Assembly: GCA_964016885.1 (NCBI GenBank)
Contig: OZ024752.1
Coordinates: 30,132,001-30,196,000 of the forward strand
Source: Eledone cirrhosa
Lineage: Eukaryota
Length of the DNA stretch: 64,000 nt
Reading direction: 5' to 3'
Shown: positions 30,720 to 64,000 of the stretch, in pieces
Position numbering within the stretch: the stretch's first letter is position 1
Layout of the letters: the number at the start of each line of letters is the position of its first letter
The notes under the pieces: generated by a model
Databases searched by the model: none
Told to the model about the DNA's origin: nothing
The model's input: only the letters and a program-made list of their open reading frames with translations
Translations under genes and position numbers: made by a program

Positions 30720-31200
30720 TAAATCAGGAAAGAAGGTTTACATGGTTTGCTATACAAAAAAGTTTTTAATCACATAGCTTACATTTGTTTCACTGAACTG
30801 GTCTGTCTAGAGATCGCTATCCGCCTAATTTTGCGTCACTCGATCGCCAATACAGAATTATAACCAGTCAGATCTTCGCTGACTGGTTATAATTCTGTAT
30901 TGGCGATCGAGTGACGCAAAATTAGGCGGATAGCGATCTCTAGACAGACCAGTTCAGTGAAACAAATGTAAGCTATGTGATTAAAAACTTTTTTGTATAG
31001 CAAACCATGTAAACCTTCTTTCCTGATTTATTATTACTCTAAGTGTTTACAACATAGGAATTACAGCATACCCGCAGCATCACTATGAAAACGCCTTGTT
31101 GAGTCAAACCAAGCCAAGCGTTAATATCATCCACTACCTGGAATACCATAACTGGACTTCACCTAAGTGGACTGCATTTAACTATTATTTGTTAATCCGT
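30720..31200. mobile_element. Palindrome (152-bp arms, 7-nt loop) plus ~170-bp tail in (TA)n; PLE-terminus-like
   Basis: 30720-30871 is the reverse complement of 30879-31030; contains the HHR 3' half GAAAC-AAAT-GTA at 30959. Confidence 0.75.
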
Positions 31201-31408
31201 ATATAAATATATATATATATATATATATATATAAATATATATATATATATATATATATATATATATATATATATATATATATATATACACATATATATAT
31301 ATATACACATATATATATACACATATATAAATATATGTATATATATCATCACCATTTTACATCTATTTTCCCCACTAGCATATACATTTAGACGAGGTGT
31401 ATTTGTGT

Positions 31409-31447
31409 ATCAGAAGGCTGCGTGTTCAAATCACGTCGGCGTCACCA
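31409..31447 (+). pseudogene. 3' half of tRNA-Trp (positions 38-76, including CCA)
   Basis: ATCAGAAGGCTGCGTGTTCAAATCACGTCGGCGTCACCA matches the metazoan tRNA-Trp 3' half as recalled; it lies between 24-bp direct repeats. Confidence 0.8.
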
Positions 31448-32317
31448 CTTTAGACGAGGTGTATTTGTGTATTTATGACTTACAAAAATATTCAGAAGAA
31501 TACGAATGGCTGGTGCGTGTTTGTACAATCAGCTCCAAGAAAAAAATGCGTGTTGTCGCTCTGCATTATTTTTGCCGGAGTGTCTGTGTTATTTTTATGA
31601 CGTGCGTTTGTGACGTCAGAGCTATCATACCACAGGTGTGGCTTCGCTGCATACATTTTTCCCGGTTATTATGTATTTTCCGTTTGTTCAGAGATTATAT
31701 GCATTGCACCAAAAAAGTGGTTCTTCAACCCTTGTAATTCATAACACACTTCTTTGTGTCTTTATTTCTATATTTTATATATATATATATATATATATAT
31801 ATATATATATATATAAATATATATATAAATATATATATATATATATAAATATATATATATATATATAAATATATATATATATAAATATATATATAAATAT
31901 ATATATATATATATAAATATATATATTTATATATATGTATATATATATAAATATATATAGAAATATATATATATATATATAAATATATATATATATATAA
32001 TATATATGAATATATATATATATATATATATATATATATATATATATATATATATATATATATATATATAAATATATATATATAATATATATGAATATAT
32101 ATATATATATATATATATATATATATATATATATATATATATATATATATATATATATATAATATATATGAATATATATATATATATATATATATATATA
32201 TATATATATATATATATATATATTTATATATATATATATATTCATATATATATATATATATATATTTATATATATATATATATTCATATATATTATATAT
32301 ATATATATATATATATA

Positions 32318-32943
32318 CGTAAACGGCAAAGCATAAACGAACTAAGGAAAAAAAAATTAGAAATAAGAGGGATCAGATGTTGTTTCTCTATTACCGAGAC
32401 CTTTGGCGGTACTCAGTAATAGAGAAGACCCGCCTTACCTAAATACAAAGTAAAACCTACTACAGTCAGTAGGCATCTCTAACAAAATACACCCCTATCC
32501 CACCACCCCCACCCCATCCACAACGCCCCTTTTAATGTAAAGTTATGTTGGTGCCACAACATCCAGGCCGAAACAAATGAGATCGTGTAGGTGTCACGAC
32601 AAAAAAACACACAGTCCACGCTGTAAATGTGGCCGTGTAGGCAACACGGTAAAAACCTCCCAGCCCCACACTGTAAATGTGGTTGGTGTTAGGAAGGGCA
32701 TCCAGCTGTAGAAAACCCGCCAGACAGTCCACGCTGTAATGTGGCCGTGTAGGCAACACGGTAAAAACCTCCCAGCCCCACACTGTAAATGTGGTTGGTG
32801 TTAGGAAAGGCATCCAACTGTAGAAAACCCGCCAGACAGTCCTATGCGAGCAAGACAACCACTCTTGCCTCAAGTGGGAAAACTCCCGTCCAAACCCATG
32901 CAAGCGTGGAACATGGACGTTAAACGATGATGATGATGATGAT
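32318..32943 (+). mobile_element. Internally deleted RTE 3' fragment of another subfamily
   Basis: [17 protein letters not shown], then a jump to RDLWR; 3' UTR with a duplicated ~120-bp module; (GAT)n tail. Confidence 0.8.
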
Positions 32944-32976
32944 TATATATATATATATATATATATATATATTTAT

Positions 32977-33318
32977 CATGGAGGCACATGGCTTAGTGGT
33001 TAGAGCATTGTCCTTGCAATCGAAAGGTTGTGAATTCAATTCTCAGACCGGGTGATGTGTTGTTTCCTTGAGCAAGACACTTTATTTCACATTGCTCCAG
33101 TTTACTGAGCTGTAGAAATGAGATGATAGGGACTGGGGTCCATATCATTCCACTGCAAAGTGGTCGTGGAGGTGCCACGGCAAAAAAGCACCCAGCACTC
33201 ACTGTAAATGAGGTTGGTGTTAGGAAGGGCATCCAGCTGTAGAAATCAAGCCAGAATCAGTTCCCGTCCCACCCTTGCAGGTAGGGAAAAGCGGACGTAA
33301 AATGATGATGATGATGAT
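32977..33318 (+). mobile_element. SINE family A, full length
   Basis: tRNA head TGGCTTAGTGG / GAATTCAATTC, body, RTE-derived tail and (GAT)n. Confidence 0.9.
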
Positions 33319-61200: not shown

Positions 61201-61380
61201 TGGGTATGTTGCTATTGTTGGTATTGTATCTGGGTATGTTGCTATTGTTGTTGTTATTGTTGTTTGTGTCTGTGTGTCTGTTGTTGTTGGGATGTGTGTT
61301 GTATATGTGTGTGCGTATATTGTTGCTTTTGTTTTTGTTTTTGATGCTCCAGCGTAGTTTCGTAAATGATTTTTCTATAA
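58271..61380 (-). CDS. PLE RT + GIY-YIG endonuclease; frame open upstream of the Met at 60964
   Basis: IEKSFTKLRW at the 5' end, TDKSG, KDHK, MDVVSLYPS, GAAIG, RYVDD, LPVLD, C-x4-CxxC linker, VVY..YIGET.R...R..EH, H..H. Confidence 0.92.
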
Positions 61381-61407
61381 ATGATTTTTCTATAAATGAT
61401 TTTTTTT

Positions 61408-62625
61408 TTGTTCATGGTATGGTGGGACAGTAGACTTAAACAAAAACTTAAAGAACAATTAGAAGACAGATTAACCCTGATAATGTACTCCCGCTACGTA
61501 GATGATATAAACATCGTAGTTAAGACACCCCCACTAAAGAACAGTCAGGAACCTGAGAAAAACACAATGGAAAGCATCCAGCAAATAGCAAACTCCATCC
61601 ACCAGAGCATTAGAGTTACTATAGACTACCCAAGTAGACACCCCAACCATCGATTACCTGTACTAGACACAGAGCTCTGGTTAGATACTATTAACAACCA
61701 AAAACAAATCCTCCATTCCCATTATGCCAAACCCATGACTTCCAAACATCTGATCCACCGAAACTCGGCCATTTCGGACCATACCAAAATCAACATACTG
61801 ATTGCGGATTTGATACGGGTGATGAGAAATGTGTCCCGCATGTGCAACCCCGAAGAACTAGAGAGACACATACAACACTTCATCCACCGTATGCAATTCT
61901 CTGGCTACAATCAGAGAGATAGAATCAGAGTGTATAAAGGAGCCAGAACCAAATGGGAAAAAATGGTAAATAATGACATAAATGGGACCTGCCCCTTGTA
62001 TAGGAGCAAATTTTGGAATAGAATAGAAAGAACTAAGAACAAGGCCAATAGAATAAACTCATGGTATGATAGCAATAAATACCAGAGTGTAATGTTCATC
62101 AATACAACCCCTAGAGGTGAACTAGCCTACAAATTTAGAAGGGCCCTAAAGAAACATAATCTCAATATTAAGATAGTAGAAAGACCTGGTACCTCCGTAA
62201 AAACACTTATTAGCAAGACATACCCGTTCCAAAGACCCTCATGTATAGATAAGAAATGTATAACCTGTAAAATAAGCCCCCATATTAACTGTAAAACTAG
62301 AAATGTAGTATATAGCATAAGATGTACTGAGGGACAATGTAGAAACAAAAATATAGTGTACATAGGTGAGACAGCTCGTAGTATAGGGGAACGAATAAAT
62401 GAACACTGGCGAGACCTCCAAGATAGTAAAGAATCATCTGTGCTCTACCAACATGCTAAGATAGAACACAGGGGTAAATTAGAGAGCATAGAAATAAAAA
62501 TAGAATCCACACACAAGAAAGACGCAATGTTTAGGCAAATTACAGAGGCAGTAAGCATAAAAGAATTAAAACCAAAATTAAATAGAAAATATGAGTGGAA
62601 CAGCAACATCACAACTTACAATTAA
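61408..62625 (+). CDS. Inverted partial copy of the same PLE ORF (RT motif C to endonuclease)
   Basis: Protein identical to the C-terminal ~404 aa of 58271-60964. Confidence 0.9.
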   Translation: MFMVWWDSRLKQKLKEQLEDRLTLIMYSRYVDDINIVVKTPPLKNSQEPEKNTMESIQQIANSIHQSIRVTIDYPSRHPNHRLPVLDTELWLDTINNQKQILHSHYAKPMTSKHLIHRNSAISDHTKINILIADLIRVMRNVSRMCNPEELERHIQHFIHRMQFSGYNQRDRIRVYKGARTKWEKMVNNDINGTCPLYRSKFWNRIERTKNKANRINSWYDSNKYQSVMFINTTPRGELAYKFRRALKKHNLNIKIVERPGTSVKTLISKTYPFQRPSCIDKKCITCKISPHINCKTRNVVYSIRCTEGQCRNKNIVYIGETARSIGERINEHWRDLQDSKESSVLYQHAKIEHRGKLESIEIKIESTHKKDAMFRQITEAVSIKELKPKLNRKYEWNSNITTYN

Positions 62626-62920
62626 GGACAAAATGAAAACACACACACACATATATAAACAACTTACAATTGAAAACACACACAAAATGAAAACACACAC
62701 AAGACAAAATGAAAACACACACACACATAGAACAAACAACCAACCAACAATAAATAAATAAATAAACAAACAAATATAAATAGAAAAATAGAAAAATGAA
62801 CACAAACACACACAGACACCCGGATGTGGCGCATGCGCAAACTGAGCACGCAACCCACACACAAACAAAATGCGTAGGATAGAAGAAAGGAAAGGCACAG
62901 AAACGAAGAAAGAAATCCCC

Positions 62921-62965
62921 AGTCACTGAAGAGGTCACAGAGTGTGTGACGAAAGAACTATGACT
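62921..62965 (+). ncRNA. Minimal hammerhead ribozyme (mirror copy 57930-57974, -)
   Basis: AGTCA-CTGAAGA-GGTCAC AGAGTGT GTGAC-GAAA-GAAC-TA-TGACT. Confidence 0.85.
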
Positions 62966-64000
62966 ATATATATATAAACAACTATCTGGTTGTGGAACCA
63001 ACCAACCAACCAGAAATTTATAAATTTGTAAATTTATAAATATATATTAAATTAAATTGAAGTGAAAGCAACTGGTGCGTGTGTTTCTTATTGGCAACAT
63101 GACCCTCCAAAGTATAACAATATCGGTTTCAACACACGATTTCAGATAAAGAATCTTGCTAAACAAATTCAGAAACGACATATATATATATATATACATA
63201 TATATATATATATATATATATATATATATATATATATATATATATATATATACATATATATATATACATATATATATACATATATATATATACATATATA
63301 TATATACATATATATACATATATATATGTATATATATATACATATATATATATATATACATATATATATATACATATATATATATACAATATATATATAT
63401 ATATACATTATATATATATATACATATATATATATATATACATATATATATATACATATATATATATATACATATATATATATATATACATATATATATA
63501 CATATATATATACATATATATATATACATATATATATACATATATATATATACATATATATATATATACATATATATATATATACATATATATATATATA
63601 CATATATATATATACATATATATATATATACATATATATATATATATATACATATATATATACATATATATATACATATATATATACATATATATATACA
63701 TATATATATACATATATATATATACATATATATATACATATATATATACATATATATATATACATATATATATATATATACATATATATATATATATATA
63801 TATATATATATATATATATATACATATATATATATATATATATATATATATATATATACATATATATATATATATATATATATATACATATATATATATA
63901 TATATATATATATACATATATATATATATATATACATATATATATATATATATATATACATATATATATATATATATATATATATATACATATATATATA

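Follow-up and report, generated by a model that had tools for sequence, protein, structure and literature searches.

Penelope-like elements (PLEs) are the sister group of telomerase. EN+ PLEs form inverted pLTRs with an optional one-sided tail, as described in the portions of PMC3846280 and PMC8557442 available to us, and the combination of inverted arms with a one-sided tail is itself already known. Neither a priming model for the inverted pLTR nor a hairpin pair was found in these portions, the available excerpts of PMC9977147 and PMC12503042 contain nothing on mechanism, and the origin of the inverted repeats and tails is an open question in the literature that we consulted on mechanism. 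PLEs of the Hydra clade carry RWK, DKT, CxCX5C and CxxC..CxH motifs without CCHH, target (TA)n and include a listed Octopus family (Craig et al. 2021, PMC8557442). In Poseidon PAc, of another clade, both strands of the target are cut and extended in vitro, a dimer is predicted, and reverse transcription begins at two positions within the RNA that lie downstream of the hammerhead and delimit the tail, with involvement of a stem-loop (Frangieh et al. 2024, PMC11167929). There the start site is not homologous to the cut DNA, and the formation of the inverted arm was left open. During L1 twin priming, according to the part of 10.1101/2024.08.27.596794 consulted, both target ends prime on the element RNA, the cDNAs join by microhomology, and extension of the downstream cDNA past the inner site can lead to duplication of that site.

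The window analyzed here is a stretch of 64,000 nucleotides from Eledone cirrhosa (contig OZ024752.1, positions 30,132,001 to 30,196,000). Its TA arrays are insertion hot spots, and one of them, at 34268-38302, is flanked by two RTE copies that are 99.9% identical. A preliminary description had reported six (TA)n-bounded inserts with 3' ends facing outward, and we confirmed all six (A to F), with TA-rich flanks. Four further inserts fit the same pattern of arms and tail (at 4232, 43011, 44212 and 57404). Two of them had been listed as weaker cases at 4234 and 57404 and do show the pattern (I and H, respectively); the other two, L (43011-43188) and G (44212-49664), had been missed. The inserts are as follows:

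30719..31200, + strand: insert A, inverted arm 30719-30871 (-), arm 30879-31031 (+), tail 31032-31200
33455..34108, + strand: insert B, arms 33455-33759 and 33760-34064, centre 33759/33760, tail 34065-34108
38723..39196, + strand: insert C, arms 38723-38923 and 38961-39161, AC-rich tail
52288..54802, + strand: insert D, arms 52288-52322 and 54677-54711, inner site 54711, tail to 54802
54892..55360, + strand: insert E, arms 54892-55080 and 55083-55271, tail to about 55360
57771..63179, no single strand: insert F, 3.6-kb tail-less copy on the - strand, 1.7-kb copy on the + strand (61408-63123), tail 63124-63179
44212..49664, + strand: insert G, partial-tandem PLE, probably of the Hydra clade, with a short inverted arm 44212-44296
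57404..57572, no single strand: insert H, left-hand tail, terminating on the right at the inner site (weak)
4232..4362, + strand: insert I, older 37-bp arms (weak)
43011..43188, no single strand: insert L, F family, left part corresponding to the final ~42 nt of the tail in inverted form, right part reaching to the inner site

Arm lengths in the six main inserts range from 35 to 1716 bp, as had been described (35 bp to 1.7 kb), and the two arms of each are near-identical: 153/153 in A, 303/305 in B, 200/201 in C, 34/35 in D (35-bp arms), 189/189 in E and 1715/1718 in F (57771-59488 and 61408-63123). In the weaker H and I, identities are 15/15 over a 15-bp overlap and 31/37, respectively. Each of the six main inserts has one tail of 35-169 nt (A, 169; B, 44; C, 35; D, 91; E, about 89; F, 56), and every arm-bearing insert has exactly one. 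The shorter arm had been said to stop 40-170 nt early; the one-sided tail stands, whereas the range does not, since tails measure 30 nt in I, 43 nt in H and 30-169 nt overall, with 457 nt in G. We scanned all 27 segments between TA arrays for end-anchored arms, using 200 shuffles for each. Five segments reached scores of 83-90 and D a score of 37, in each case higher than every shuffle, and H reached p=0.01. Three other rows at p<=0.01 (14768, 16064 and 39407) are read as low-complexity matches. No palindrome with zero or two tails was found among the 27 segments, and no end-anchored arm was found in the LINE-type inserts of the same arrays.

All inserts look like PLEs, and for D, F and G this is shown here by a PLE-type RT and a GIY-YIG endonuclease (EN) in a single ORF, recognized by motifs. 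The ORF of F (58271-61411, in the - copy) encodes a protein of 1046 aa with RT (DKS, YVDD) plus, at the C terminus, a GIY-YIG domain (YIGET); that of G (46083-48441, one frameshift) has DKT and YRDD, with the EN after the frameshift; and that of D, 5'-truncated and ending at 53685, has YRDD and YFGST. Pfam gave a weak RVT_1 match for F and none for G or D, and because of this weakness the assignment relies on motifs together with 137 and 332 homologues, almost none of them named. No ORF is present in A, B, C, E, H, I or L. By their protein motifs G and D appear to belong to the Hydra clade: RWK and DKT are both present in G (D is truncated before them), as are CxCX5C and CxxC..N..CxH, the latter also in D, which misses one linker cysteine, and CCHH is absent from both by eye. 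A, E and I are putatively Hydra-type by a shared hairpin, which is complete in A and E and of which I has half. F has the C-terminal EN, a CX4CxxC linker and, by eye, the CCHH motif, that is, the features of Neptune/Nematis-type PLEs (C-terminal EN, CX2-5CxxC, CCHH), to which we assign F, B and L. The inserts had been taken for members of unrelated families, which is incorrect in that the end of B is shared with F (86% over 65 bp) and one hairpin is common to A, D and E.

The pLTRs are direct or inverted with a one-sided tail. Likeness to the published EN+ PLEs, in the portions of the sources available, extends to an inverted 5'-truncated copy, partial tandems, a tail at one end, a (TA)n bias and a hammerhead-like motif in the pLTR; published tails differ in being 30-40 nt long, compared with 30-169 nt in the window. 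A hammerhead core with stems was recognized by pattern in C (a minimal motif, 39004-39032), D (54609-54663), E (55171-55220) and F (near 62926, + copy) and more weakly in G. In B the core near 33813 reads AAAA in place of GAAA in both arms, and in A the centre cuts through the hammerhead-like core. The core is conserved in 19 metagenome loci. Rfam returned no hammerhead match and no hairpin match; its hits were chance miRNA-like matches on palindromes and arrays, and two tRNA-like matches in locus L076. A reading of the L arm as starting at the hammerhead cut was dropped, a better stem I placing the cut about 26 nt upstream.

Our preferred reading, which we hold to be probable, is that the inserts are PLE copies in which both 3' ends of an AT-rich cut primed at two fixed internal RNA sites and the cDNAs were joined head to head, the Hydra-type sites lying ~4 nt before a hairpin that likely positions the RT. 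That the structures are fold-back chimeras of the assembly or library is scarcely credible: the scaffold does contain TA arrays that are long and unstable, as well as a gap of 200 N, but against it stand tails on one side, ends that are constant within a family, mismatches between arms, fillers with a template and non-nested arms, and the same shape has been published from other genomes. We also find it very improbable that one array received two separate insertions of a young family in head-to-head orientation, or that one tail was lost afterwards through slippage between an inner ATAT and the array. Such an origin would draw on the arrays as insertion hot spots and on the RTE pair described above, but TA is missing between the arms, the arms of A, B, C, E and F are 99.3-100% identical while L and F differ by about 3%, the altered B core is in both arms, the inner site is common to B, F and L, and there is always exactly one tail.

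The arms of A, B, C, D, E, G and I are nested, whereas in F, L and H each arm carries sequence absent from the other; in L the arms do not overlap at all. The centres of A, B, C and E are near-symmetric (loops of 7, 0, 37 and 2 nt), and junctions show microhomology of 4 nt in G and 2 nt in L and templated filler in C (where the centre is filled from local sequence) and in F (a tandem filler, 61363-61404). A single priming at the tail end, followed by fold-back (self-priming) of the cDNA, after which the inner AT-rich site would be resolved by the endonuclease or joined through microhomology, is an unlikely alternative, in which the TA-like inner site would reflect the target preference of the endonuclease and the hairpin would guide cutting. 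It would produce nested arms, and self-priming and EN-mediated tail resolution have been proposed in the available portions of PMC3846280 and PMC8557442, respectively. Fold-back of one cDNA explains the near-symmetric centres of A, B, C and E as well as the two-site model does. However, it cannot make both arms of F, L and H, and the non-nested arms of these inserts therefore indicate two primings. Furthermore, six direct 3' copies in metagenome loci (L005, L016, L033, L037, L045 and L076) also end at hairpin-1 sites, and in vitro reverse transcription starts at both tail boundaries (PMC11167929).

Priming at two sites of the element RNA resembles L1 twin priming, but not in its L1 form. Poly(A) is absent here, and the two sites are constant within a family and lie internally in Hydra-type elements, whereas L1 (in the part of the source consulted) uses poly(A) at one end and a variable inner site set by chance complementarity; a long inverted duplication is common here, unlike in L1 twin priming. 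The preliminary description had proposed twin priming in which the self-complementarity of (TA)n is causal, one end of the break priming at the RNA terminus and the other at an internal AUAU. Of this proposal the two primings survive, through F, L and H and through an enrichment of TA microhomology, whereas the RNA terminus, the choice of site by ATAT and the need for (TA)n are not supported, and in its full form we judge it quite improbable. TA overlap is indeed enriched at the ends, with a sum of 21 against 6.9 expected for the six inserts (p=0.008) and of 32 against 9.7 expected for nine sites (2-5 nt each; p=0.00025), individual window sites giving p values of 0.04-0.30, none strongly significant. 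This overlap differs from the Poseidon start, reported as non-homologous to its target (PMC11167929), a finding that counts against the two-site reading. UA-rich bases precede the hairpins, the inverted arm of G terminates at a TATA without a hairpin, and where solitary copies are transcribed into flanking (UA)n, priming could take place in that flank. However, the inner stop is not always a TA run: an exact alternating run of at least 4 nt is found in 3/6 inserts (B, C and F), with 3 nt in A and D and 2 nt in E, and the overlap is just 2-3 nt in A, D, E and H. Each arm region offers 1-35 equally good TA runs, many of them unused, whereas the ends used fall in a cluster 0-6 nt ahead of a hairpin that is conserved. 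Both Hydra-type ends are internal sites, because native sequence continues beyond the tail end: tandem G and the metagenome Hydra-type loci run past it into a second hairpin and the ORF. The fixed ~4-nt register to the hairpin also holds in (ATTT)n and in non-array AT-rich flanks (L005, L023, L034, L035 and L041), and inverted pLTRs with a tail and 9-10 bp TSDs are published for rotifer PLEs, as given in the available part of PMC3846280; both speak against the need for a self-complementary (TA)n target.

The predicted hairpins found in the window are as follows:

31036..31104, + strand: A hairpin, long-loop version (ACTC/GAGT, TT bulge), 4 nt after the A inner site
54716..54740, + strand: D hairpin, bulged, 4 nt after the D inner site
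55277..55296, + strand: E hairpin, following the E arm end at 55271
45958..45998, + strand: G hairpin 1, a pattern match with a second copy at about 49554, not the minimum-energy fold
46073..46090, + strand: G hairpin 2, 4 nt downstream of the native site used as the right end of G, not the minimum-energy fold

The insert ends at 31031, 54711, 55271 and 49664 lie 4-5 nt before a hairpin, that at 49664 stopping 4 nt short of the hairpin-2 position. The A hairpin is the minimum-energy fold, its energy alone not being unusual (z -0.8), and the folding energies of single tails were for the most part ordinary. After the inner sites of B, C, F and H a hairpin of this kind is absent, and after that of I only its 5' half is present. 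The D tail stops about 9 nt into a possible hairpin 2; this and the hairpin-free TATA at the G inverted arm end are at odds with a model based on hairpins.

We surveyed 76 Hydra-like PLE loci from marine metagenomes and found a covarying predicted hairpin (GCTC..UN-bulge..GAGCAC) twice between the hammerhead motif and the ATG. Its pattern gave 151 plus-strand matches, against 27 on the minus strand and 7-20 in shuffles, and 98 matches fell within 330 nt after the hammerhead core, in 45 loci. Among 51 loci with an ORF start, 28 had two hairpins, 17 had one and 6 had none, with a spacing of 57-83 nt between hairpins. Without any pairing imposed, the upper-stem pairs were Watson-Crick in 85/61/64% of cases compared with 44/28/25% after shuffling, the excess being confined to the register with a 2-nt bulge, and in 12 hairpins of equal length 98.8% of cells were paired, with 8 double-sided changes. 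RNAalifold found 0 pairs in a MAFFT alignment of 19 loci, in which the stems were out of register; because hairpins that differ in length had been misaligned by MAFFT, the count of pairs was made with each hairpin anchored at both ends. In the 10 nt before hairpins an alternating run of at least 4 was present in 13/26 and 11/25 cases, against 12% of control windows.

Among 23 mapped Hydra-type ends, hand-picked and partly redundant and taken from short-read metagenome contigs, 16 lie within -1 to 8 nt of a hairpin. The other seven lie at 12, 11, 65 and 86 nt, one past hairpin 2 and two that by eye lie at 5 nt. Both sites are used within one family (L037 at hairpin 1, L034 at hairpin 2). No complete host-flanked insert with arms and tail was recovered among the metagenome loci. 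Searches with the 26-nt B/F/L end pattern gave 0 matches in metagenome contigs, the F-family alignment found no loci in genome or viral contigs, and the Hydra alignment found none in viral contigs.

In the mechanism that we propose, both 3' ends of the cut AT-rich DNA would each prime reverse transcription on the element RNA, with two starts, one per hairpin, and the two cDNAs would then be joined head to head. The RT may bind the hairpin while the 3'-TA of the target pairs with the UA-rich bases preceding it, and a dimer holding hairpins 1 and 2 could leave precisely one end with a tail and one without. The cDNA primed downstream would displace the other, or two RNAs may be used. F, B and C would follow the same two-site logic with a different signal. 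A more specific version is offered tentatively, as a possibility: Hydra-clade PLEs may have a dedicated pair of RT-anchoring hairpins, each after a short UA tract matching (TA)n, with an RT dimer on one RNA priming both cut ends in one programmed step. If so, integration would normally proceed by twin priming, the PLE tail would be a spacer between two anchors, and a mobile element would have a telomerase-like template of structure plus alignment tract. Poseidon PAc differs in that its start lies inside one AC-rich stem-loop, whereas two repeated GCTC/GAGC hairpins stand 3' of the sites in the Hydra-type elements studied here. A short, conserved and duplicated RNA element that predicts both ends lends itself to simple tests with the existing in vitro assay.

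A description of the hairpin pair was not found in our literature search; "hairpin" and "stem-loop" are absent from the main text of PMC8557442, and "hairpin" from its supplement text. The hairpins are nevertheless visible in several of its deposited consensus sequences. By eye, no canonical hairpin was seen in the Hydra-1_Obim consensus, but the ends of four others fit the two-site reading: Hydra-1_Ajap, which contains both hairpins, begins 2 nt before hairpin 1, and Hydra-2_Ajap, Hydra-2_Amil and Hydra-1_Crog end 24-40 nt after a hairpin (PMC8557442 supplement). The hairpins provide a rule for curating Hydra-type boundaries, and they help to spot non-coding Hydra-type copies such as A and E.

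Array-masked self-comparison and base-level checks upheld the inverted arm (a near-identical inverted copy) with a one-sided tail (the extra stretch beyond the inner site) in all six Penelope-like element (PLE) inserts for which it had been described, A to F, with 0-3 differences between arms. This shape is already known: in the available text of PMC8557442 the arrangement and the (TA)n bias are shown and resolution by endonuclease is suggested. The window is 31% GC, is rich in (TA)n arrays and has a single gap of 200 N; it also contains the weaker inserts H and I and two that the earlier description missed, G and L.

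Inserts, with arm, tail and the alternating run common to native sequence and flank
A, 30719-31200: arm 153 bp, tail 169 nt, run 3 nt
B, 33455-34108: arm 305 bp, tail 44 nt, run 4 nt
C, 38723-39196: arm 201 bp, tail 35 nt, run 5 nt
D, 52288-54802: arm 35 bp, tail 91 nt, run 3 nt
E, 54892-55360: arm 189 bp, tail ~89 nt, run 2 nt
F, 57771-63179: arm ~1716 bp, tail 56 nt, run 4 nt
G, 44212-49664: partial tandem, inverted arm short, runs 4 and 4 nt at its ends
H, 57404-57572: weak but genuine in base-level checks, run 2 nt
I, 4232-4362: weak but genuine in base-level checks, run 5 nt
L, 43011-43188: F-family copy whose tailed arm, just ~42 nt, stops short of the inner site

Among the 27 segments between TA arrays, an end-anchored arm is strong in 5 and weaker in D and H, and none has zero tails or two tails; I sits within a bigger segment and was examined separately. 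In G, both tandem copies of the repeat unit contain a TA/TG-rich microsatellite region, the inverted arm skips 29 nt and the reading frame shifts once, near 48060.

F encodes a reverse transcriptase (RT) that has a CX4CxxC linker and, at its C-terminus, a GIY-YIG domain. These features assign F to the Neptune/Nematis type, and the top match of its protein is an Octopus vulgaris protein (67% identity). G carries RWK, DKT, CxCX5C and CxxC..CxH, which the available text of PMC8557442 gives as Hydra-clade marks, and D is a truncated relative. The end of B is common to F and L. The six inserts, initially attributed to unrelated PLE families, thus form about three groups instead. C, D, E and F each have a hammerhead-like core; the one in G is weak, the one in B is changed in both arms, and in A the centre of the palindrome interrupts it. 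An Rfam search did not recognise these cores. The centre of the B palindrome (33750-33775) and the matching place in F near 62870 hold a AAAATGGCG motif beside TATA, which we take to resemble a YY1 site; the centre of B may mark the RNA 5' end.

Comparison of 3' copies with native 5' pLTRs placed Hydra-type ends just 5' of the motif GCTC-Y..R-UN-GAGCAC. Marine metagenome contigs were scanned with an alignment of 40 Hydra-type proteins; of 360 confirmed matches the 80 best were kept, which gave 76 loci. Across these, the hairpin pattern occurred 151 times on the plus strand, vs 27 times on the minus strand and 7-20 times after shuffling; where an ORF start was recognisable (51 of these loci) it occurred twice in 28, once in 17 and not at all in 6. 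Both predicted bulged hairpins lie between hammerhead and ATG, 57-83 nt apart, with hairpin 2 33-68 nt upstream of the ATG, and both blocks were seen in 19/19 loci chosen for alignment. In 109 distinct hairpins, with pairing not imposed and relatedness ignored, three upper-stem pairs were Watson-Crick in 85, 61 and 64% vs 44, 28 and 25% when shuffled, an excess confined to the 2-nt-bulge register; a 12-sequence subset was 98.8% paired with 8 double-sided changes.

Ends follow these hairpins. For 16 of 23 hand-picked ends, some from one family, the distance to a hairpin is between -1 and 8 nt, mostly 2-4; the others lie at 12, 11, 65 and 86 nt, one past hairpin 2, and two are technical misses (5 nt by eye), one being a junction into element sequence, not host. 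In the window, spacing to the hairpin on the 3' side is 4 nt for the inner sites of A and D and for the G right end, and 5 nt for the inner site of E. By eye, 4/6 deposited Hydra consensi contain the hairpin and start or end in register; Hydra-1_Amil ends before its expected position and Hydra-1_Obim has no canonical copy. Judged from sequence, the duplicated predicted hairpin is a new element, predictive of both ends in Hydra-type PLEs.

A stretch similar to the tail end of I (4350-4362), which matches 10 bases at the A inner site (31036 area), opens the Hydra-1_Obim consensus. Two short TA-bounded inserts (42748-42890 and 56337-56500) carry a GCTC..GAGC hairpin variant ~70 nt from the right end, the left end of the former is similar to the right end of the latter when this is inverted, and both are probably further Hydra-type fragments. 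In metagenome loci L009 (1091-3311) and L071 (169-2480), of one family, a hairpin-1 end is joined to the element's own inverted ORF sequence and a hairpin-2 end enters host TA, in a complex arm-and-tail structure.

The preliminary description held self-complementary (TA)n to be the cause of the structure. Metagenome ends occur at either hairpin with (TA)n, (ATTT)n or plain AT-rich flanks, so (TA)n is a helper only. Its overlap at the ends is real, given the comparison with random breakpoints in the same sequences: p=0.008 for the six inserts (0.015 without B) and p=0.00025 for nine sites, omitting B and L as F relatives (single sites 0.04-0.30). Alternating TA is also enriched in the 10 nt upstream of the hairpins (13/26 and 11/25 vs 12%). 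As for priming at an internal AUAU, every region contains 1-35 runs that would serve equally well. The companion proposal that one end is the RNA terminus is contradicted by G, whose upstream tandem unit runs past the right-end site into the ORF. At several loci (L001 243-471, L053 2994-3031, L010/L034/L038, L019) 8-24 nt of (TA)n immediately 5' of the hairpin form a longer built-in target match.

Twin priming or fold-back of one cDNA could give such arms. The tail-less arm of F (3.6 kb) has ORF sequence missing from the tailed arm, which alone has the tail, and the arms of L and H are likewise non-nested. None of these pairs is obtainable by one-cDNA fold-back, which argues that two RNA-templated starts would be required. 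Inner junctions have overlaps of 4 nt in G and 2 nt in L and locally templated filler in C and F, fitting the joining of two cDNA ends; L1 twin-priming junctions are described likewise in the available text of 10.1101/2024.08.27.596794. The near-symmetric centres of A, B, C and E fit two cDNAs reaching the same RNA 5' end or, equally, fold-back. Twin priming is supported in part.

Every arm-bearing insert has one tailed and one tail-less end, which suggests a dimer on both hairpins. The endonuclease would likely cut both strands of AT-rich DNA, and RT would likely bind the predicted hairpin and begin ~4 nt upstream, helped by target 3'-TA pairing of 2-5 nt. A start at hairpin 2 on one target end would copy the spacer as tail, a start at hairpin 1 on the other would leave none, and the cDNAs would end at variable points and be joined head to head. 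If a single RNA served both starts, displacement synthesis would be involved; to our knowledge PLE RT is without RNase H. The hepadnavirus epsilon, a bulged stem-loop that anchors RT, offers an analogy only. For a Poseidon element in vitro, cutting and extension affect both DNA strands, RT begins at two sites within the RNA that bound the tail and have no homology to the cut DNA, and a dimer is predicted (PMC11167929). A literature search, with subscription journals mostly outside its coverage, found nothing on PLE twin priming or on paired hairpins in these elements.

There are difficulties. The G inner end has no hairpin, the D tail ends within a possible hairpin 2, and F, B, C and H appear from their sequences to rely on another signal. 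As the 3' pLTR is normally without hairpin 2, this hairpin has to come from an RNA that is tandem, circular or the product of read-through. L046, L067 and the contigs bearing terminal direct repeats (L004, L012, L013, L025, L031, L036, L042, L049) either contain full units arranged head to tail or look circular, which would fit tandem arrays, circular templates or a collapse in assembly.

Other repeats in the window
34268-38302: two RTE-like LINE copies, their tails facing each other across a 175-bp TA array, 931-aa ORF
14980-15412, 51181-51636, 55551-55940, minus strand: three-copy repeat, 3' end fixed against (TA)n
5278-5538, 16424-16482, 25446-25652, 40596-40660: older imperfect palindromes, no TA-array bounds, MITE-like in appearance
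19893-23265, 28245-30000, 40076-40440: minisatellites, periods 34, 59 and 61

The second RTE-like copy is identical over 766/767 bp, and the 3' ends of the pair point inward, whereas the PLE inserts have the opposite geometry. The three-copy repeat, LINE-derived by appearance, encodes a short Cys/His C-terminal peptide and has no inverted arm. Templated filler is found at 38288-38340 in the RTE-like pair.
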